Below are positions 7,398-60,280 of a DNA stretch of 64,000 nt, piece by piece (the first letter of the stretch is position 1; each line of letters begins with the position of its first letter). The stretch comes from Flaccisagitta enflata (Eukaryota). The translations under genes were made by a program, and so were the position numbers. The DNA lies in contig OZ231126.1 in assembly GCA_965153355.1 (NCBI GenBank), positions 38,254,001-38,318,000 on the forward strand, in the 5' to 3' direction. Under the pieces are notes generated by a model. It worked only from the letters and a program-made list of their open reading frames with translations. It was not told the DNA's origin and did no database searches.

Positions 7398-7680
7398 ACC
7401 GACTTGGATCAACAAAATTCAAATGGTGAATTTACAAAATTCGATTTCTCATGGTGAATCTAGGAAATCGGTCACCGTATGGCCTAATGGTAGTTACTCG
7501 GAAAAAATGCCTCGGCATAACGGCCCATACTGGGTGATAGTATGAACCCTCCCCATCACGTTCATACCAAGAGCCAAATGTTCTACTTGGAAATTAGGCC
7601 AAAATGGCCTGATTTGGCCATTTCTCAGGCCATTTTGGCTATATCATGGAATTTGCGGCTTTTTTTCCATATCACTGGAT

Positions 7681-9151: not shown

Positions 9152-9247
<96 letters not shown>

Positions 9248-9598
9248 CGCAGTTGTTGTTGCTGTTGTTGTTGCTTTTGTTGTTGCTGTCGCTGTTATTG
9301 TTGCTTTTGTTGTAGATGCTGTCGTTGTTGTTGTCATTGTCGTCATTGGTGTTGATATTGTTAACTGCTTTGTCAATGTAGTTGTTGTTGTTGTTGTTAT
9401 TGCTGTGAATGTTGTTATTGGTTTGTTGTTGTTTTTTTCAATGTTGTTGTTGATGTTGTTATAGTCGTTATTGTTGTTGTTGTTGTTGTTTTGTTGTTGA
9501 TGTTGTTTCAGTCATCGTTGTTTCTGTCGTTGTTGTTGTTGTTGTTGTTGTCTTTGTTGTTGTTTTTGTTCTTGTTGTTGTTGTCTTTGCTGTTGTTT

Positions 9599-9665
<67 letters not shown>

Positions 9666-9679
9666 CTTTGTTGTTGTTT

Positions 9680-9726
<47 letters not shown>

Positions 9727-9830
9727 AATTTTGTTATTGTCTTTGTTGTTGTTGTCATTTTTATTGTTGTTGTTGCTGTTGATGTTTTTGTTGTCATCAT
9801 TGTCATTGTTGTTGTTGTTATTGTTGTCGT
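9151..9830. repeat. (GTT)n microsatellite and degenerate derivatives
   Basis: Direct inspection; source of the poly-T/C/L/N ORFs. Confidence 0.95.
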
Positions 9831-10426
9831 TTAGGTTGTATCTGTTGTTGCTAGCTATACAAAATTGCACAGGATCTCATTTTCATTAGGCAATATTTGT
9901 ATTCCTTCTTTAACTTTTGTTTTATTATAAGTTAGACAGTTGTGGATAAGCAAGTTCTGGCGTTGGAAGCTTTGACAGAAATGCCAAGCCACTTGAATTT
10001 CGCTGAAGGCTGTTTTGTTGCGGATATGCGACTCCAGCTTGCCGGGTCATTCCGTTGGTCTGTCAGTTGGTCGGTCGGTCACATTTTTGATTTTCTAGTG
10101 GTTTTCACATTACTGCTCCTGCACAACCATCTGCAACTGGACTGCCGTGTATCTGGCCTTGTTTGATTGCGTGCTAGTGACATTGTGTTTGGTGTTGAGC
10201 ACGTAACTATATACAAATCAGTTGTTTGGTCTGTCAGAGCATTCTTACTTACCATTTGTAAAAGAACGATGCTCGTGTCATGGTCAACATTGATTCCTGA
10301 GTTAATGATTGATAAGTTATCTCTTCAATGTCGTTTACGCCACAAAAGGACTGGAATGTGGAAGTCGAATATGTCATTCAGTAAACATTCCACAAGGCTA
10401 ATACTCCAGAGAAAATAGCAGCCCAA

Positions 10427-24369: not shown

Positions 24370-26675
24370 CGGTCAAATATAAATATCCGCTGGGCCAAAA
24401 GCTCAATTTTTAGAGTTTCAAAAAAAAAAAAAAAGTAACCGTCTCCAATTTTTTGCATACTAGTCAAAAACATGCCTTTTTAAGCAAAAAACTGCCATTT
24501 TTGGCAAAAAAAAGTGTGTCTAATTTTTTCGGCTCGCAATCGGGAAAAATGAAGTTGATTTTCTTAATCTACAGCTTTTTTAGGACTAGTGTGCAAAAAA
24601 TTGGAGACGGTTTTTTAGTCGCGTGCACGCGACTCTACAACCCGCTCCGTCTGTCGGTCGGTCGGTCGGTCCGTCCGTCCGTCCGTCCGTCGGTCCGTAA
24701 CACTTTGCTTTTTTTCGTCTTTTTGGGTCATCTGGAGTTATTTTGAGTCATTTTTTGGTTGTTTAGGGGAATTATTGGTTGCTTTTAGTCATTTTTGGTC
24801 ATTTTTGGTCATTTTTGGTCATTTTTGGTCATTTTTGGTCATTTTTGGTCATTTTTGGTCATTTTGGTCATTTTTGGTCATTTTTGATTATTTTTGGTCA
24901 TTTTTGGTCATTTTTGGTCATTTTTGGTCATTTTTGGTCATTTTGGTCATTTTGGTCATTTTGGTCATTTTGGTCATTTTGGTCATTTTTGGTCATTTTT
25001 GGTCATTTTTGGTCATTTTTGGTCATTTTTGGTCATTTTTGGTCATTTTTGGTCATCTTTGGTCATCTTTGGTCATTTTGGTCATTTTGGTCATTTTGGT
25101 CATTTTGGTCATTTTGGTCATTTTGGTCATTTTTGGTCATTTTTGGTCATTTTGGTCATTTAGGTCATTTTAATCATTTTGGTCATTTTGGTCATTTTTG
25201 ATCATTTTGGTCATTTGGTCATTTAGGTTATTTGGTCATTTTGGTCATTTTGAACGTTTTGGTCATTATTGGTCATTTTAGGTCATTTTGGTCATTTGGT
25301 CATTTGGTCATTTTTGGTCATTTTTGGTCATTTTTGGTCATTTTGGTCATTTTGGTCATTATAGGTCATCTTTGGTCATCTTTGGTCATTTTGGTCATTT
25401 TGGTCAATTTTGATCATTTTTGGTCATTCTTGGTCATTTTTGGTCATTTTTGGTCATTTTGGTCATTTTGGTCAATTTTGGTTATTTTGGTCATTTTTGG
25501 TCATTTGGTCATTTTGGTCATTTGGTCATTTAGTCATTTAGTCATTTTGGTCATTTTGGTCATTTTGGTCATTTTTGGTCATTTTGGTCATTTTTGGTTA
25601 AAGTTTGCTGGTTAAAGTCTGCTGGTTGAAGTCTGCTGGTTGAAGTCTGCTGGTCTGCTGGTCTGCTGGTTAAAGTCAGCTGGGCAAAGTCTGATGGTCT
25701 GCTGATGGTCTGCTGGTCTGCTGGTCTGCTGATGGTCTGCTGATGGTCTGCTGATGGTCTGATGGTCTGCTGGTCTGCTGGTCTGCTGGTTAAAGTCAGC
25801 TGGGCAAAGTCTGATGGTTAAAGTCTGCTGGTTTAAATCTGCTGGTTTAAATCTGCTGGTTTAAGTCTGCTGGTCAAAGTCTGCTAGTTTAAATCTGCTG
25901 GTTTAAGTCTGCTGGTTTAAATCTTATGGTTTAAGTCTTCTGGTCTAATGGTTTAAGTCTGCTGGTTTGAGTCTGCTGGTTAAAATGATATTAAAGATAA
26001 GTATGGTTTAAGTCTGGTTTAAGTCTGGTTTAAGTATGGTTTAAGTATGGTTTACGTCTGGTTTAAGTCTGGTTTAAGACTGGTTCATGTCTGATTTATG
26101 TCTGGTTTAGGTCTGGGTTAGGTCTGGTGTAGGTCTGGTGTACGTCTGGTTTTTGTCTGGTTTATGTTTGATTTAGGTCTGATTTAGGTCTGGTTTTGGT
26201 CTGTTTTTGGTCTGGTTTTGGTTTGGTTTGAGTCTGGTATGAGTCTGGTATGAGTCTGGTCTGAGTCTGGTTTTAGTCTGGTTTGAGTCTGGTTTGATTC
26301 TGGTTTGAGCCTGGTTTGAGCCTGGTTTGAGCCTGGTTTGAGCCTGGTTTCGGTCTGGTTTAAATCTGGTTTGAGTCTGGTTTGAGTCTGGTTTGAGTCT
26401 GGATTGAGTCTGGTTTGAGTCTGGTTTGAGTCTGGCTTAAATCTGGTTTTTGTCTGGTTTATGTCTGATTTAGGTCTGGTTTCGGTCTGGTTTAATTCTG
26501 GTTTGAGTCTGGTTTGAGTCTAGTTTGGGTCTGTTTTGGGTTGCGTTTAAGTCTGATTTTCGATAAAAAGATACAATGAGTCAGGTCAGTTCAGTTATTT
26601 TTGTCCTGCACGCGACTTATAGGTGTTGGCCTTGTTTATTTTTCAAAGGGTTTTGGTCTACCAGATATTTGACCG
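24370..26675. mobile_element. Palindromic MITE with 4-bp TSD, interrupted by a 2-kb HINE
   Basis: acag|CGGTCAAATAT ... ATATTTGACCG|acag; internal IR accgtctccaattttttgca / tgcaaaaaattggagacggt. Confidence 0.75.
24611..26636 (+). mobile_element. HINE/DINE-1-like element expanded by minisatellite arrays
   Basis: TTTTTT-AGTCGCGTGCACGCGACT, (GTCG/GTCC)n, then (tttggtcat)n, (gtctgctggt)n and (gtctggtttga)n arrays; 3' GCACGCGACTTATAGGTGTTGGCCTTGTT. Confidence 0.85.
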
Positions 26676-27507: not shown

Positions 27508-30500
27508 CACTAGGGCATCCAACGACCGCTAGGTTTAAACTAGGAGTACTTGAACTTTTATTGTGGTTTCTGTTGGTCAAGCCCATGTGGGATCCATGGC
27601 AATTGATTGCAAAATTTTTCCAGGACAAAATTTTTTTAAATTTCAATTTTTTTGTGGGTGGGTGGTACAGGCTATTTTCATCCTTTACCATCAGAACAAG
27701 GTAACTTCTTAAGCATTTATCTCCTAAACGAATCAACAAATTGACCTCAACTTGGGCTCATTTTAAAGAGGAGACACAGCTCTTTAAAATGAGCCCAAAT
27801 TGAGTTTAATTGCTCGATTCGTTTAGGAGCTACAGTCCTCCGAAGTTGATGTTATTTTAAGCCTTTACCATCAAAACAAGGTAAGTTCTATAGCATTTAT
27901 TTCCTAAACGAATCAACAAATTGACCTCAACTTGGGCTCATTTTAAAGAGGAGACACAGCTCTTTAAATGAGCCCAAATTGAGCAATTGCTCAGTGCGTT
28001 TAGGAGCTGCAGTCCTCCAAAGTTGATGTTATTTTTGGCCTTTACCATCAGAACAAGGTAACTTCTAACGCATTTATCTCCTTAACAAATCAACAAATTG
28101 ACCTCAATTTGGGCTCATTTTAAAGAGGAGACACAGCTCGTTAAAATGAGCCCAAATTGAGCCTAATTGCTCAATTCATTTGGGAGCAACAGTCCTCCAA
28201 AGTTGATGTTATTTTCAGCCTTAACCATCAGAACAAGGTAACTTGTAATTTAGCTCTAAAGCATATTTGTCGTAAACAAATCAACAAATTGACCTCAACT
28301 TGAGCTCATTTTAAAGAGGAGACACAGCTCTTTAAAATGAGCTAAAACTGACCTTAATTGCTCAATTTGTTTAGGAGTAATAGCCCTCCAAAGTTGATGC
28401 TATTTTTTTTACAGGGGTATGTATGATTGAGCGGCTTTAGATTTTATCACCCCCCCCCTTTGATTTTCTCCCCCGTGACCAGCGATATGTGGCAGCTTGG
28501 GACCTTAGGACTTAACAGCCAATTCCAAGCATGACATCAAATCTAAGAAAGACCGCAGTGATGCAGATTCATGGTAGCAAATAGCAATGCTACTTGGCAG
28601 GCAAGACCCAAATTGCGGTAATTGCGGCAGGAGAGGAAAGGGAAGGCAATTAAAGGGGTAAAGAAGAAAGGAAAGAAGAATGAAAGTAAAGGGAAAGATT
28701 ATCTTGTGGAAACAAGAGAAAGAAAGAAAGTAAGAGGAAGAAAGTAAGAAAGAGAGAAAGAAGGACAGACAGACAGAAAGACAGAAAAAAAGAACATTCC
28801 AAATTTAGAGACGGAATGATAGAATCAATAGTGAGTAAAAGCTGCAGCAGCTCTTGAAAGACCAATTCTGCTAAGCGACAGCTTGCAGAATCTTCCTCTC
28901 TGAACGTCGTTCAGTGAACGACTGCAAAACTAAGCATGACAGCTTTTTAACTGATTTGCCTTGATTTCTATGCTTTCTCAGCCAATATTAAAAAAAGTCG
29001 CAAAAGTGTTAGATGGTCAGCCTTGAGGCCCAATCCGTGCCTTGAGGCCCAATCCTAGCCTTGAGGCCCAATCCCAGCCTTGAGGCCCAATCCCAGCCTT
29101 TAGGCCAAATCCCAGCCTTGAGGCCAAATCCCAGCCTTGAGGCCTAATCCCAGCCTTGAGGCCAAATCCCAGCCTTGAGGCCAAATTCTAGCCTTCAGGC
29201 CTAATCCCAACCTTGAGGCTAAATCCGAGCCTTGAGGCTAAATCCCAGTCTTGAGGCTAAATCCCAGCCTTGAGACCCAAATCCCAGCCTTGAGGTCCAA
29301 ATCCCAACTTTAAGGCCCAAATTCCAACTTTGAGGCCAAAATCCCAGCCTTGAAGCCTAAAACCCAGCCTTGAGGCCCTAGATCCAGCCTTGAGGCCAAA
29401 ATTCCAGCCTTGCAGCCCAAATTCAAGCCTTAAGGCCCAGCTTTGAGGACTAAATTCTAGTTCTGAGGCCAAAATCCCTGAGACTTACTAAGCTTAGGTC
29501 ATCAGCCCCTTAAGGGCCGCTGCCCCTCTAACCACCTCACACCCACATACACTCACATAGGGGCAATTGGTACTGCTGACCATCTAACACTTTTGCGACT
29601 TTTTTTAATATTGGCTGAGAAAGCATAGAAATCAAGGCAAATCAGTTAAAAAGCTGTCATGCTTAGTTTTGCAGTCGTTCACTGAACGACGTTCAGAGAG
29701 GAAGATTCTGCAAGCTGTCGCTTAGCAGAATTGGTCTTTCAAGAGCTGCTGCAGCTTTTACTCACTATTGATTCTATCATTCCGTCTCTAAATTTGGAAT
29801 GTTCCTTTTTGGGCAGCGGCCCCAAAGGGGACGATGTCCTGTAGAACACAGGGGGACTTTCGTTCGTTTGTTCGTTCGTCCGTCCGTCCGTCCGTCCCCC
29901 CCTGCCTCGAGGCTCAAATCCCGGCTTCAAGGCCTAAATCCCACCCTCAAGGATCAAATCCCAACCTCAAGGCTCAAATCCCAGCCTTGAGGCTCAAATC
30001 CCAGCCTTGAGGCTCAAATCCTAGCCATGAGGCTCAAATCCCAGCCTTGAGGCTCAAATCCCAGCGTTGAGGCTCAAATCCCAGCCTCAAAGCTCTAATC
30101 TCAGCCTTGAGGCTCAAATCACAGCCTCCAGGCTCAAATCCCAGCCTCCAAGCTCAAATCTCAGCCTCCTGGCTCAAATCTCAGCCTCCTGGCTCAAATC
30201 CCAGCCTCCTGGCTCAAATCCCAGCCTTCAGGCTCAAATGCCAGCCTTCACACTCAAAATCCAGCCTCCAGGCTCAAATGCCAGCTTCCAGGCTCATCCC
30301 AGCCTCCAGGCTCAAATCCCAGCCTCGAGGCCCGCTCGGACGGATGGACGGATGGACGAACGAATGAAAGTCCCCCTGTGTTCTACAGGACATTGTCCCC
30401 TTCGGGGCCGCTGCCCTGCTACCCATCACCTACAATCACCAACTTACTAAGCAGGGCAACGGGTATCGCTGACCACATATTGCCCTTGGGCGACTGGTTT

Positions 30501-31664
30501 CTGTCTTTCTGTCTGTCTGTCTTTCTTTCTCTCTTTCTTACCTTCTTCCTCTTACTCTTTCTTTCTCTTGTTTCCACAAGATAATCTTTCCCTTTACTTT
30601 CATTCTTCTTTCCTTTCTTTTTTACCCCTTTAATTGCCTTCCCTTTCCTCGCCTGCCGCATCTACCGCAATTTGGGTCTTGCCTGCCAAGTAGCATTGCT
30701 ATTTGCTACCATGAATCTGCATCACTGCGGTCATTCTTAGATTTGATGTCGTGCTTGGAATTGGCTGTTAAGTCCTAAGGTCCCAAGCTGCCACATAAAC
30801 AAATTGAGCAATTAAGATCAGTTTTGGCTCATTTTAAAGAGCTGTGTCTCCTCTTTAAATTGAACTCAAGTTGAGGTCAATTTGTCAGTTTGTTTACGAG
30901 AAATATGCTTTAGAGCTAAATTACAAGTTACCTTGTTCTGATGGTTAAGGCTGAAAATAACATCAACTTTAGAGGACTGTTGCTCCCAAATAAATTGAGC
31001 AATTAGGCTCAATTTGGGCTCATTTTAAAGAGCTGTGTCTCCTCTTTAAAATGAGCCCAAGTTGAGGTCAATTTGTTGATTCGTTAAGGAGATAAATGCG
31101 TTAGAAGTTACCTTGTTCTGATGGTAAAGGCCTAAAATAACATCAACTTTGGAGGACTGTAGCTCCTAAACAAATTGAGCAATTAAGCTCAATTTGGGCT
31201 CATTTTAAAGAGCTGTGTCTCCTCTTTAAAATGAGCCCAAGTTGAGGTCAATTTGTTGATTCGTTTAGGAAATAAATGCTTTAGAAGTTACCTTGTTCTG
31301 ATGGTAAAGGCTTAAAATAACATCAACTTTGGAGGACTGTAGCTCCTAAACGAATTGAGCAATTAAGCTCAATTTGGGCTCATTTTAAAGAGCTGTGTCT
31401 CCTCTTTAAAATGAGCCCAAGTTGAGGTCAATTTGTTGATTCGTTTAGGAGATAAATGCTTAAGAAGTTACCTTGTTCTGATGGTAAAGGATGAAAATGG
31501 CCTGTACCACCCACCCACAAAAAAATTGAAATTTAAAAAAATTTTGTCCTGGAAAAATTTTGCAATCAATTACCATGGATCCCACATGGGCTTGACCAAC
31601 AGAAACCACAATAAAAGTTCAAGTACTCCTAGTTTAAACCTAGCGGTCGTTGGATGCCATAGTG
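27508..31664. mobile_element. Chapaev-like (CMC superfamily) foldback element, 4157 bp
   Basis: aacc|CACTAGGGCATCC ... GGATGCCATAGTG|aacc; arms 27508-29020 and 29575-31664 are reverse complements; four 180-bp tandem units per arm. Confidence 0.9.
29806..30499 (+). mobile_element. IR-flanked 20-bp minisatellite HINE-like element inserted in the right arm
   Basis: Absent from the left arm (empty site near 28785-28795); inserted in a T-run with no evident TSD; same IRs as 12583-13555. Confidence 0.85.
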
Positions 31665-34629: not shown

Positions 34630-34720
34630 TATTTAGGGTTAGGGGTAGGGTTAGGGTTAAGGTTGGGGATTGGGGTTGGTTTTAGGGTTAGGGTTAGGGT
34701 CAGAGCTATCGTTAGGGCAA
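34630..34720 (+). repeat. Interstitial degenerate (TTAGGG)n
   Basis: ttagggttaggggtagggttagggttaagg...tttagggttagggttaggg. Confidence 0.8.
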
Positions 34721-36121
34721 GGTGAGAGCCGTGTTAGATACATTTCAACCCGAATCTACTCGAATTAAAGCTTCGCCCAAACGGGAAAACCTGATAAAAA
34801 CAAAAGATCAGTATTGTCTTCGAAATTTTTTCCTTGGCAAGCACCAACAATCTGACAGTCAAGCACTGAATCGTACTGAGACGCTGGTCCACGACTAGAA
34901 CAAGGCCGGATAGACGGCCAACAAGTAGTCACTTGCGGGTGGGCAGGGCCAGTGAAGCGGGTGGGCGGGAGCTGTATTACATGTATGGGTGACTAGGGGC
35001 TGTAATGTAATGCCAAATTCGAGTCATCCCGAATTTCGCGTTTCCGACCATCCGACGGACGGACAAACCCTATATTGAGTCGCTTAGCAAGCGATCATAA
35101 ACGGCAAACTGGACGCGGACCATAATACGGCAAATGTTGTTCTTATTTTCTTTCGAGTGAGTGTGGGACTACTGACGATATCTATCAAATTTTGTCCAAA
35201 TCCTCAAGCGCGAAACTCCGACAGTAAACAAAATGTACTTTCTCGAAATCTTTGGAAGGGAGACAATAGGCTGAGTCTGAAACATTAGGGGGTATTTTGA
35301 GCATTTTCAAAGCTGTGTCACAGTTGTAAAAATGCAACCACATTGATGATTTTTGGTGTGCATCCTCCTTGAACATTGTACTTTGACTAAAAAATGGAAT
35401 TTTGGGCTGAACTGCCTACAAAATGACCAATCTACCCCTTTTACCTACCACTACTTTGTCAAATATGGATTTTTGAAGCTTGACAACCCCAAATCTATCA
35501 TCAATATATCCAAAAAATGAATTTTCCCAAGGTATCCTGAACTTGGGTTATGCTTATTAGATGTTACTTAAGGGATTTGGGCTAAAAAAATCCAAATCCA
35601 CCAGTTTGTTTTTTCCTGATATTGTCCTCAAGCCAACTCCACTACTTTTTGACCAAATTTGCATAAATATCGTATATTACTTCCAATTGAGTTTTTTGCA
35701 GTCAAATTCTATAACCTAAGTCCAAAAACTCTTTCAATCCACTCATCAGCACTTCAGCTAAGGAGCCGACTCAAAAATTGCTACCTTACTCAACCTCTAG
35801 GCTCAGAACGAGATCTTATGTTTTCCTAGTTCTACCTTATCAGCGTGAGAGGTCGCGAGGGGCGTTGTCTCCTGTCTTTGCCATAGCCGCAACAGGAGCT
35901 TAAAAAAGCTTATAGTTATATGAGCCATTATGTAATTATAGACGGAGAAAATCCTTAACTATCTTCCAACGAACGCAAAAAAAAAAAACCTTAATAAATG
36001 GGTAAAACCCAAAACATAAACATAAACCAAGTAACACTTCCTTTGTCCGTCTTTTATTCTCATCACAGCTTCAAATCATAGAAGAAACCTATTAGTGGAA
36101 TAATTGGAAATTTAATCTTTG

Positions 36122-37983
36122 TCAAAGTGAAAAAGAGAAACTTCCAAAGCCGAAGCCTTTCTTAGGTTTGTGATGTTTGTGCATTTTCTTGGCCATCTTC
36201 TTTTCGTGTTTCATTTGTTTCTTGGCAAGTTTGGGGTCGTAAGCTGGGCCTCCCATCATCACCGGCGGACCCGCGGGCACCATCATCGGCGGCCCCGCCG
36301 CCATCATCGGCGGTGGCGGTCCTGCGTACCCCGGAGGCGGCGGGCCGTATCCCGGTGGTGGAGGTCCTGCGTATCCCGGAGGCGGAGGTCCTGCGTATCC
36401 TGGAGGTGGTGGTGGGCCGTATCCGGGAGGTGGAGGACCACCGGGAGGTGCCCCGCCTCTGGCACCCATAAGGATTTGATCCGCGGTTTGCTGATCTAAT
36501 TTTGACGAAAGATTTATTTTGCAATCATTAAACATTTGAACAATATTTTGAATAGAAGTCTCGTGGAGATTTTTGATCAAGTTCACGAAGCCTCATAAGT
36601 CACAATGACAACAACCCCAAAAGGGCAACAGTCGCCTGCGTCTGGAAATGACAAACAAAAGAGTAAAAACATGTTAAAATGCTAAAAATTTTGAAGAATG
36701 TTAAAGAATGTTAAAAAATGTTAAAAAATGTTAAAAAAGTTGAAAAATGTTAAAAAAAGGTTAGAAAAGGTAAAATGTTAAAAAATTTTTAATAAATGTT
36801 TAAAAATGTTAAAAAATGTTAAAAAATGTTAAAAAATGTTAAAAAATGTTAAAAAATGTTAGAAAATGTTAAATAATGTAAAAAAAAAGAAAAAAAACTT
36901 TCTAAATTTAAAAATGTTACGGACGGACCGCCACCGCCGATGATGGCGGCGGGGCCGCCGATGATGGTGCCCGCGGGTCCGCCGGTGATGATGGGAGGCC
37001 CAGCTTACGGACGGACCGACAGAGCAAGGTGTTGAGTCGCGTGCACGCGACTATAAACCTTCAAATTTTGTATTCTTTCTGATTTAAAAAATGTCATAAT
37101 CATCATCAAACTAGGACTATATCCTATTAGATCTGTTATTGTCAATTCACACGTGTAACCTTTGATATTCTCCATCTCATTTATATCTTTTTAGCAGAAA
37201 CATGCCGCCAGTGCAATCGACTTGTCACAAAAGATCAATTGGCGCGTATTCGTCACAGATGAATGGACTTTTTTTACCTTGTTGAGAAAAAAACGCGCCC
37301 AGAACGTGATTTTTGTTTTGAGGATCTTGAAGACGAGGCGCAAAAGCTTGCAGAACGCCGAATTTCGCTTGAGGTGCAGCTTGATCAAACTCACGACAGC
37401 AGGCCGCTGGAAATTGTTGGAGAGAAAGAGAGAAAAGAGTTATGAAGAAATCAAGAAAAGGATAAAACAGACAGGCCCACAGTTAGACAGAAAGGAGACA
37501 GGTAGACACACTGACATGACACATAAAGAGAGAATCTTAAGTTCAACGGAAAGTGAGGTAAATGTTAAATGAATGAATGAATGAATGAATGAATGAATGA
37601 ATGAAGGAATTCAATGTATGAATTTTAAGTTCGATGTATGAATCATATGAACAAATAAATGAACGAATACCTAGATCAGCGGCGGTGATTCCGGCGCATT
37701 TTTGGGCGAGCAACTGAGCAGCTTCCGATTTCATCGGCGTCGGCTGTTGGAACAGGTGGAGGATGTGTGGGCATTCGTTGCCGTTGACGCCGCCGGCAGC
37801 ACGAATCACCTGAATGAATGAAAAAATGAATGTCGAATGAATGAATGAATGAATGACTGAATGAGACAGGTGGATGCTGTGAGGACATTTGTTGCCGTTG
37901 ACGCCGTTGGCAGCCCAAATCACCTGAATCTTGTCTTCATCCCGTTGACACTGCTGCACGGCACCCAACAAAGTGCCAGCCAT
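36122..37983 (-). CDS. 4-exon gene, 233 aa: DUF4476/PROSER1-N-like domain, GY(A/G)PPPP repeats and Lys/His-rich tail; complement(join 37924-37983, 37671-37809, 37278-37406, 36122-36495)
   Basis: All introns GT-AG with consistent phases (0,1,1); 702 nt open from ATG to TGA. Sequence ...KFGVLQAFAPRLQDPQNKNHVLGAFFSQQDQQTADQIL resembles the DUF4476 pattern by eye. Confidence 0.85.
36608..37057 (-). mobile_element. HINE in intron 3 with (aaaaaatgtt)n array and a captured exon fragment
   Basis: Ends gagtcgcgtgcacgcgactataaa; GGAC microsatellite interrupted by an exon-4 copy. Confidence 0.8.
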
Positions 37984-39350
37984 GATGCCGACAGAAAAAG
38001 TGACCAGCAAAAAAAAAAAAAAAGAAAAAAAAAAGGTAATGAAATAAAACCGACAGAAAGTGGGAAAGGGACGAATTGATATGTACAGGTGGAATTTAGA
38101 ATGAATTTGAATCAACCAATGTTTATACCATGAACTAATTTCGGAGGGACGGAAAGACGAAATGTTCAAATAGTGTGCGAGCCGGTCTTTTCATACGAAG
38201 AATCAGCACAAGTAAAGATACGAAAACACGGATAAAACAAGGAACGTGGGTTTACAATATCGTCGCGGACGGGTGGGCAGGGCGTCCAACCCCCATCCAC
38301 ATTTCAACCTCTACCCTTACACATAAAGCATGCGATCTTTGCGACCCGATCACCACGGTCCGACGGATGGATCGACGGACGGGACAAAGCCTCTTATAGA
38401 GTCTCTGGTCCTCGACTAAAAGGGAATTTTTTTATAAGACGAAATTAAGGAGCGGAAACAGTTCAGAAAATGATAACGGGACAGTCTGGACTATCAACGG
38501 GCTTGAATACCGCAAAGGCTCGTCGGCCGCTTTCAAAGCTGGACCAGGATTACACGACGCCAAATTAGGATGCTAATAAATATAAGAAGCTTGGAACATT
38601 ACTCTTTGAAAATATATTTTTCTACTAAATAGAGAGTGTGCATTCCATGACATTTGGGTGAAACAAGCATTTCTTGCACAACAGGTTAGCAATGGATCCA
38701 GACAGCTCCTCTTCAGTTTTAAGGCAATTTTCTGCTGTCGCCACTTCGTCTTTGTTCTCTGAGGTACATAAGAAGTGCGGCAAGGAATTACATTAATCAT
38801 GAAACAACATCTCAGACAAAACAGATCCAAGGAGGGAGAGCCTAAATTTCTTCCGTAGTTGACTAAACAAGGTTTTGTAAGAGCTAGTTTGTTCTTATGT
38901 CATTTTAATCAGTTCAAAAATGAATCCCATAAGTTTGCTAAAGATAACGGGCTGTAAAGAAGCAGCGCATGCACGTCATAAAAAACAGCAATTTTTTTAC
39001 ATCAACCAGTCGTCATGGCAAGGAGGTGATGTCATATTCTGTGGTTATTTTGTGATATTATGTCGTCTTTGGCCTTCCTAGTATATTCGCAAGCATATAA
39101 ATGCGTTAGCTGCTCCTCTCCATCCAGAATATCTATCAGACTAGTTGAATAAGTTTCCAGAAATTGAGGAAACGCAATTCAATGAAACCGTTTTTTGTGG
39201 AAAAGCCTTCAACGAGCCGGTAACTAATTTAATAAGTCAAATTCAACCAACTAGGATGGTCTTTACTTGTGTTTGATCTGAAAAAAATGTAGTAAATCAC
39301 ACTTTTGAAAATAGATTTGAACACTGCATGATCAAATTAGTCATCCAAGG

Positions 39351-45677: not shown

Positions 45678-46064
45678 TTTTTAGTCGCGTGCACGCGACT
45701 CTACACCCCGCTTTGGTCGTCTGTCGGTCCGTCCGCCGGTCGGTCCGTTTGTCCGTGGTCGGTCCGTCCGTCCGTCCGTCCGGCTACACTTTACTTTTTT
45801 GTAGCGTCAACTCTTGGGCCTTTAAGTCATTTTAGTCATTTAGTTTCTATTTTTGAGTCATTCTAAGTCATTTTAAGTTATTTAAAGTCATTTTAAGTTA
45901 TTTTAAGTCATTTTTGGTCCTTAGGTTTTTTAGACATTTTAAGTCCTTTTTGGACATTTTAAGTCATTCTAAGTCGTTCTAAGTCATTCTAAGTCATTTT
46001 AAGTCATTCTAAGTCCTTCTTACCCTGTAAATCTCGCACGTGACTTATAGGTGTTGGCCTTGTT
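45678..46064 (+). mobile_element. HINE with (aagtcatttt)n
   Basis: Same 5' palindrome and 3' end as 24611-26636. Confidence 0.8.
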
Positions 46065-59550: not shown

Positions 59551-60280
59551 GGTTCCATTTTTTTCTGATTTTCAGTGCAATCAATACATACAATTGCTTT
59601 TGATTTGATCTAATAAATAAAAAAAATTCAATGACTGAAGACAAAAGCAGGGTGAAAAGTGACCAATGCTTACGACTTTTTTCCTCACGGCGACAGCCGC
59701 CATTACTGGTAGAGGTGCTATAGCGCACCTAACAAGGACGGATATACGTTAGGGGCAGCAGGGTCACAAAAAAAATCGCAGACAATTCATCAATGTTACG
59801 GACCAACAGATCTACCGGTCGACCGACGGACCTGACTAACCAACCCAGCACAGCAAGGCGTAAATATGAACACCTTATTGATTATAAAAAGTGACACAGG
59901 TCACAATATTTTTGCGGACGGGTGGGCTAACCCCTAGCCTCACCCCAACCCAAACAAACACACAATTTAACAAGGCCGGATGGACCGTCAAAGCGGGGTG
60001 TAGGGTCGCGTAGCACACGACTAAAAACTGCAGCATCGTGAATGCGCGTTTTCCGCGTTTTCAACTCGAGCGCAATGGTTTCCTGATTAGTTGCGTGTGC
60101 GCGACTTTCCACGTTACTGTGCCGGTGTGCCCTGCTGTTGTTTCGAAAGAGTAAATGTCAATGTACTAACGTCGATGACACTTGTACCTTGTTAATTTGA
60201 ATAACTTCATTCTAATAACAGGCAGTAAAGGAAGAGGCCCGAGCTTCGAAGGCATGGCGAGCAAAACAGGCTATTGTAAA

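Follow-up and report, generated by a model that had tools for sequence, protein, structure and literature searches.

A piece of 85 nt from the last coding exon of a four-exon gene is found a second time, inverted and without a single difference, in the third intron of the same gene, where it lies within the microsatellite of a HINE-like element (a non-autonomous Helentron). The gene belongs to a stretch of 64,000 nt from Flaccisagitta enflata (contig OZ231126.1), which was analysed as a whole and is called the window below. The intronic copy is considered here to reflect a genuine insertion of 88 nt, recent in evolutionary terms and generated by microhomology-mediated switch-and-return of a DNA 3' end, an explanation to which we assign a probability of roughly 0.78.

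The inverted repeat was identified by a repeat search of positions 35000-39000, in which 36925-37009 is the exact reverse complement of 36238-36322 (85 nt, 100% identity, with a spacer of 602 nt). An earlier note on this DNA, made from the letters alone, had given the same coordinates, had quoted the peptide that the exon arm indeed encodes and had placed the piece in the microsatellite of a Helentron-like element about 600 bp away, and all of this agrees with the present results. Inverted pairs with arms of at least 40 nt, no more than 3 kb apart, number 52 across the window; among the 25 longest of them only two are 100% identical, this one and a pair of 236 nt (28786-29021/29575-29810), and the 36238-36322/36925-37009 pair is the only inverted pair found that touches a coding exon. 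A third copy of the 36925-37009 stretch was not found in the window by a sensitive blastn comparison with 36400-37300 as query. A chance origin of the match is rejected by its length and identity in 64 kb, together with the junction simulation described below. The inverted copy carries the exon sense on the + strand and is, therefore, antisense within the pre-mRNA of the gene. It also leaves the exon frame open on the + strand, as part of a stop-to-stop frame of 52 codons (36877-37035) which crosses from the HINE repeats into the microsatellite, and no sign of expression of this frame was seen.

The junctions of the copy carry most of the information on how it arose. The insert is flanked by two copies of a direct repeat of 14 nt, TTACGGACGGACCG, and between them 74 nt are attributable to the exon only. 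GGACCG (36925-36930) and TTACG (37005-37009), at the two ends of the insert, match the exon as well as the flanks, and the net insertion amounts to 88 nt, namely 85 exon-identical nt plus GAC. The earlier note had reported both microhomologies and a repeat on either side, which are now measured at 6, 5 and 14 nt, respectively. In a simulation of 200,000 trials, in which random local fragments of 74 nt were placed at random HINE positions, 6 nt of microhomology at the departure point appeared in a fraction of 0.0016 of the trials, 5 nt at the return, which was left free over 20 nt in either direction, in 0.072, and the two jointly in 0.00039 (0.04%). Capture of a free fragment at a staggered cut, leaving a genuine target-site duplication of 14 nt, was rejected, because it would require the 6 and 5 flanking nt to match the exon by coincidence. 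A microsatellite ending in CCGTAAC is present in four of the nine aligned HINE left flanks, including that of the intron-3 copy. In the latter a motif of this type flanks the insert on either side, in the form CCGTAAG at the junction that faces the HINE 5' end; a short original microsatellite with 14 nt duplicated fits this better than loss of a longer one.

A local template switch is the best reading of the junctions and of the 14-nt duplication. We infer the order of its steps, and the enzyme pathway behind them, from the product. Described on the + strand, synthesis across the short microsatellite of the intronic HINE would have reached ...TTACGGACGGACCG (36930); the freed 3' end would then have used GGACCG to anneal to the + strand at 36317-36322 in exon 4, some 600 nt away, and copied it backwards as far as 36238, acquiring the new end ...CTTACG. 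After a second release, TTACG would have annealed again where the microsatellite begins, 9 nt upstream of the position first left, and onward synthesis would have re-copied GAC and GGACCG; the 14-nt direct repeat would thus exist because the return point lies upstream of the departure point. On this model, an allele without the insert would have ACAG right behind a single 14-mer, in the order seen at 37005-37022. These events could have taken place at a stalled replication fork, with a switch from the leading strand to the lagging-strand template, or equally by fold-back synthesis on the resected end of a break in the microsatellite, two settings that the sequence cannot tell apart. The product would be a HINE with an internal exon fragment, as in the filler-DNA model of Helitron capture, with its donor still adjacent.

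The acceptor was assigned to the HINEs by its layout. In the window, the order on the + strand is an array of 10-nt units, a GGAC-type microsatellite, the palindromic sequence AGTCGCGTG CA CGCGACT and a T-rich run. In the oyster element Cg_HINE, according to the description of its structure in PMC7492417, the left flank comprises a 5' subterminal inverted repeat (subTIR), a complementary inverted repeat and a GTCY/GTCC/GTCK microsatellite, followed by tandem repeats and then by a right flank with a 3' subTIR and a palindrome. Because of this layout, the palindromic sequence (37035-37051, minus strand), which is kept across the left-flank alignment, is taken as the 5' subTIR with its inverted repeat and not as a 3' hairpin, and the element itself is read along the minus strand, as is the gene. 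A looser pattern for the 5' end, consisting of a T run, AGTCGCG...CGCGACT and a GTCY microsatellite, recovered 10 HINE-type ends in the window (at 7680, 18831, 24611, 37035, 45678, 49247, 60087, 60429, 62022 and 62428), all 10 preceded by a T run, which is TTTAT in the intron-3 copy. Nine of them were aligned, the variant at 60087 being left out, and all nine have the conserved 5' end with (GTCC/GTCG) microsatellite units right after it. The exon piece, which interrupts the (GTCC)n microsatellite of the intron-3 copy, is carried by none of the other eight; this was the comparison with further HINE copies that the earlier note had proposed. Arrays of 10-nt units related to the central one are found in two further copies (24783-25598 and 45821-46015). 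Members of this family crowd the window, and some of its copies have very long arrays of 10-14-nt units (for example 24783-26559). The right flank is less well preserved: a blastn search for right-flank similarity gave nothing convincing, although a MAFFT alignment did show a likeness to four other copies around GCACGCGACTT...TGGCCTTGTT. The 3' subTIR candidate of the intron-3 copy matches at 9 of 12 positions in a comparison of the aligned letters, and its palindrome is only CCCC/GGGG-like.

The host gene lies on the minus strand and its model consists of four exons encoding 233 amino acids (aa), with GT..AG boundaries in all three introns. A homologue search against longer proteins, with the contiguous open stretch 37672-37983 as query, left three of 65 candidates (P0002-P0004, of 216, 226 and 206 aa; E values of 5.7e-25, 4.8e-20 and 2.5e-17), which are 48-60% identical over the query stretch. 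The spliced model is colinear with all three from end to end and gap-free at the exon junctions, so the terms exon 4 and intronic used in the earlier note hold. The homologues score 24.6, 20.6 and 23.4 bits against DUF4476 (PF14771), two of the three passing the gathering score of 22.5. Pfam searches with single exons of the host gene gave only sub-threshold matches, exon 3 reaching 13.3 bits against the cut-off of 22.5 when scored as a single exon and not as part of the spliced protein. Judged from these similarities, the product appears to be a DUF4476-type protein with a tail rich in Pro, Gly, Tyr and Met, which contains PPPGY repeats and ends in a basic GFGFGSFSFSL stretch. A DUF4476-derived gene, lophotrochin, is described in PMC7441323 as a spiralian ciliary-band gene. 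A profile made from the three homologues matched 53 proteins at E <=0.001 among 1.84 billion representatives, and the host protein family is narrow, because most of these matches span the Pro-rich region only; clear matches of the full-length type were P0002 itself and P0005 (236 aa, E = 4e-18, profile positions 10-179). A query of the ESM Atlas with P0002 returned no usable match.

Exon 4 is built on a pattern of 21-24-nt units (36253-36313 and 36308-36436), which the donor segment continues in frame, the arm starting on a codon boundary. All three homologues have Met-rich repeats at the donor's place in the tail, and because of this the exon segment is considered old and the donor; since they retain this tail, and the remaining aligned HINE copies lack the piece, the exon was the donor and the HINE the acceptor. 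The coordinates of all these features are collected in the table. Another part of the same gene also contains a local repeat: the first 64 nt of exon 2 and the preceding 6 nt recur at 86% identity right after exon 1 (37752-37815/37866-37929), with a spacing of 114 nt, which is exactly the length of intron 1 (37810-37923). This intron has an open frame and is filled out by a (CATT)n microsatellite, and the 38 residues that it would encode if read through are missing in all three homologues. It looks as if a partial duplication spanning an AG|GT site lay within it or had given rise to it, although the shared ATTCAG could instead derive from the (CATT)n microsatellite.

Table. Features of the host gene, the inverted repeat and the HINE-like element (positions within the window)
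Feature	Position	Strand	Basis or remark
Exon 1, coding part, from ATG	37924..37983	-	Spliced model and homologue alignment
Exon 2	37671..37809	-	Spliced model and homologue alignment
Exon 3, DUF4476-like stretch	37278..37406	-	Spliced model, Pfam, homologue alignment
Intron 3, 782 nt, GT..AG, houses the HINE and the inverted copy	36496..37277	-	Spliced model and homologue alignment
Exon 4, coding part including stop	36122..36495	-	Open frame, stop at 36122-36124; homologue alignment
Donor arm, 85 nt of the last coding exon, Met/Pro-rich tail	36238..36322	-	Nt 502-586 of the coding sequence, codons 168-196
Inverted copy of donor	36925..37009	+	100% over 85 nt; absent in 8/8 other aligned HINE left flanks
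Left-hand 14-nt direct repeat, TTACGGACGGACCG; last 6 nt common with exon (departure microhomology)	36917..36930	+	Read from sequence
Right copy of the 14-nt direct repeat; first 5 nt, TTACG, common with exon (return microhomology)	37005..37018	+	Read from sequence
HINE-like element (non-autonomous Helentron), same orientation as gene; 3' boundary approximate	36605..37057	-	Motif search, blastn, left- and right-flank alignments
HINE 5' end: T-rich flank, then subTIR and nearby inverted repeat, AGTCGCGTG CA CGCGACT	37035..37057	-	4 close matches, 0 expected
Central tandem-repeat array of the HINE, about 22.7 copies of a 10-nt unit	36664..36886	.	Tandem-repeat search
Degenerate HINE right flank; 3' subTIR candidate AGTCGCCTGCGT on + strand (36630-36641), then weak palindrome and conserved TTGTT tail	36610..36641	-	Alignment with 4 other right flanks

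The age of the insertion can be judged from other duplicates, there being no differences in 85 nt, as against 86% identity in the 64-nt duplicate of the same gene and 98.5% in a duplicate of 3.9 kb nearby. These yardsticks suggest a recent event, and the insert probably has no selected function and is neutral. Several points weigh against the switch-and-return explanation. The insert is known from one assembly, and the ancestral state was judged through the other HINE copies as a proxy, not from a direct ancestral sequence. The distance of 602 nt exceeds the scales in PMC5453318 (clusters within tens of bp) and PMC11724301 (a loop of 41 nt). If the microsatellite was originally longer, the right microhomology would shrink to about 3 nt and the 14-nt repeat would be partly a coincidence. 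Finally, gene conversion between the arms could maintain perfect identity, which leaves the recency unproven. The earlier note had spoken of a recent local template switch and of gene-fragment capture; the switch does explain the junctions and the duplication best, its recent date being suggested by the identity of the arms, and the acquisition was internal to the element, but there is no sign that the HINE copy has moved or multiplied since.

One competing explanation is an artefact of assembly or polishing, in which a chimeric read or a mis-join would have put 88 nt into the microsatellite. The site would lend itself to such an error, being a microsatellite in a repeat-dense and error-prone window with 129 tandem-repeat rows and 52 inverted pairs. 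Unique sequence, however, runs on at both sides of the insert, junction words of 6 and 5 nt are too short to mislead an assembler, and a target duplication of 14 nt is a biological footprint that mis-joins do not make. Missed-adapter palindromes in long reads give long fold-backs, not an island of 85 nt. An artefact is, for these reasons, unlikely.

The repeat has predicted consequences for the RNA, if transcription of the host gene is assumed. In a pre-mRNA stretch of 851 nt (37050-36200) the predicted minimum-energy and centroid folds both contain the duplex of 85 bp, with an energy of -343.1 kcal/mol, whereas shuffles of the same stretch average -209.8 kcal/mol (z = -15.5; none of 20 as good). 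The two arms alone, with 74% G+C, are predicted to reach -215.5 kcal/mol. The earlier note had expected an intron-exon duplex of 85 bp across the exon-4 acceptor; the duplex is indeed predicted, but the acceptor is looped out and not covered, as it lies inside the loop of 602 nt, with 429 nt separating it from the intronic arm upstream and 173 nt from the exonic arm downstream. Each arm contains 11 adenosines; editing of those in the exon arm would change Met to Val in six cases and Tyr to Cys in one, the remaining four being synonymous. Effects on splicing, editing or dicing are possible on this model. In the DNA itself, the two 85-bp arms could also promote inversion of the sequence between them, with exon 4 disrupted as a result.

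These predictions also bear on the idea that the duplex is a selected regulatory hairpin, kept for recoding of Met codons by ADAR, for control of exon-4 splicing or for self-directed small RNAs. The stability of the predicted fold and of its arms, and the seven of 11 exon-arm adenosines that would recode if edited, speak in its favour, as do the ADAR homologues that, according to PMC6651903, are present across lophotrochozoans. Against it, the arms have no differences and hence offer no covariation that would indicate constraint, a single locus is concerned, no Rfam family matched 35000-39000 at E up to 1, and perfect identity is the look of a new neutral mutation. Selection for the hairpin is thus decidedly improbable. 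A further, unlikely reading is that the locus is a freshly made self-targeting hairpin, in which the HINE-borne antisense copy would give every pre-mRNA a perfect 85-bp duplex, to be hyper-edited by ADAR (six Met-to-Val and one Tyr-to-Cys changes) or diced into small RNAs directed at the mRNA of the same gene. If so, a mobilised HINE copy would spread an antisense gene fragment through the genome, and the locus would be a first step, caught in the act, by which Helentron-type elements take up gene fragments and generate hairpin-RNA or small interfering RNA (siRNA) loci.

The remaining two explanations have very little in their favour. Helitrons and Helentrons do capture host fragments, as in the eight Culex Helentron copies with histone fragments mentioned in PMC4067079, which speaks for rolling-circle transduction by end bypass, with transposition past the HINE terminus taking up flanking host DNA. 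It is rejected by the internal position of the insert, which lies in the microsatellite of the left flank and is not next to the 3' terminus (fragments trapped inside an element exclude end bypass, according to a statement in PMC6544945); moreover, the fragment is inverted, its junctions show microhomology and no other aligned copy in the window carries it, which makes end bypass highly implausible. Copying of the Met/Pro-rich coding segment from the HINE into the exon, which the symmetry of an inverted repeat alone would allow, is scarcely credible and is rejected by the homologues, with Met-rich repeats already at the same place in the tail, and by the eight other HINE left flanks, all without the segment, which is in frame in the exon and fits its repeat pattern.

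Other repeats of the window were observed in passing. A direct segmental duplication of about 5 kb (40509-45433/52961-57713) consists of 3,902 nt at 98.5% identity followed by 1,142 nt at 93.3%, and the tandem-repeat rows within its two copies are identical. A large palindromic structure occupies 27508-31664 (27508-28373 against 31664-30796 at 96.5%) and contains arrays of 180-nt units on both arms as well as the perfect 236-nt inverted pair at 28786-29021/29575-29810. There are, in addition, an interstitial telomere-type run of 11 TTAGGG units (34633-34700) and a (TGT)n array of about 227 units and 680 nt (9152-9831).

Taken alone, the insert amounts to one structural variant, probably neutral, from a mutational class that is already known. 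Its value is that of a clean natural example of processes usually inferred from old and eroded cases: a template switch making a long perfect inverted repeat in one step, the acquisition of internal filler DNA by a Helentron-type element with both microhomologies intact and the donor adjacent and identical, and the emergence of an RNA duplex between intron and exon. Should the insert prove polymorphic in the population, the two kinds of allele would constitute a natural experiment on the effects of an 85-bp duplex on splicing, editing and small RNAs.

Among known systems, intronic editing-complementary sequences pair with an exon for ADAR editing, for example at the Q/R site of GluA2, forming duplexes that are short, imperfect and conserved. 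The present locus resembles them in that part of an intron is complementary to codons of the exon beside it within one pre-mRNA, but its duplex is of 85 bp, perfect and probably new, and its editing is hypothetical.

Reverse-complement copies of this kind are described by the four-point template-switch model of Loytynoja and Goldman (PMC5453318), and template switching can create perfect RNA stems in one event, as stated in PMC8794818. The likeness is close, a nearby stretch being copied in reverse complement by a single switch-and-return that yields a perfect inverted repeat and a possible RNA stem (PMC5453318; PMC8794818). The events treated in the template-switch studies are short-range, whereas the copied 85 nt and the distance of about 600 nt are larger here, and the event is deduced from its product. 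The order of the four switch points in that model would account for the 14-nt duplication. Synthesis-dependent microhomology-mediated end joining, with snap-back synthesis by polymerase theta, is a similar route to inverted insertions. In yeast, fold-back templated inversions at breaks span from 2 to about 150 bp, mostly <14 bp, with a loop of 41 nt in the case set out in PMC11724301; there too, sequence near a break is copied in inverted form from an inverted microhomology that serves as primer, unwound and joined to the other end. The case presented here differs from them in its copy of 85 nt and its loop of about 600 nt, and a break in the microsatellite has to be assumed.

A literature search found no paper joining 'Helentron' with 'template switch'. 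The filler-DNA work referenced for the Helitron capture model is reportedly that of Gorbunova and Levy in 1997. The model, as outlined in PMC6544945, predicts short homologies at both ends of an internal fragment, with reported junctions of 2-13 bp, and the intron-3 element agrees with it in carrying a host fragment inside, with microhomologies of 6 and 5 nt at its two junctions. It departs from it in that the fragment comes from the host gene itself, with the donor segment identical to this day and 600 nt distant, and in that the chimeric element is not amplified among the nine aligned copies of the window. Few gene fragments in Helentrons or HINEs are reported by Thomas et al. (PMC4067079), whose definition of DINE-1/HINE is the one followed here. 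With Cg_HINE and DINE-1, as these are described in PMC7492417 and PMC4067079, the element shares the 5' subTIR with a nearby inverted repeat, the GTCY-type microsatellite, the central repeats, a candidate 3' subTIR region, the T-rich flanks and its presence in multiple copies in the window, whereas its right flank is degenerate and its 3' palindrome weak, and the match to HINEs is one of description, not of consensus sequences. The case thus belongs to a known mutational class, that of template-switch or filler-DNA insertions, and illustrates a way in which part of a gene could enter the interior of a HINE.

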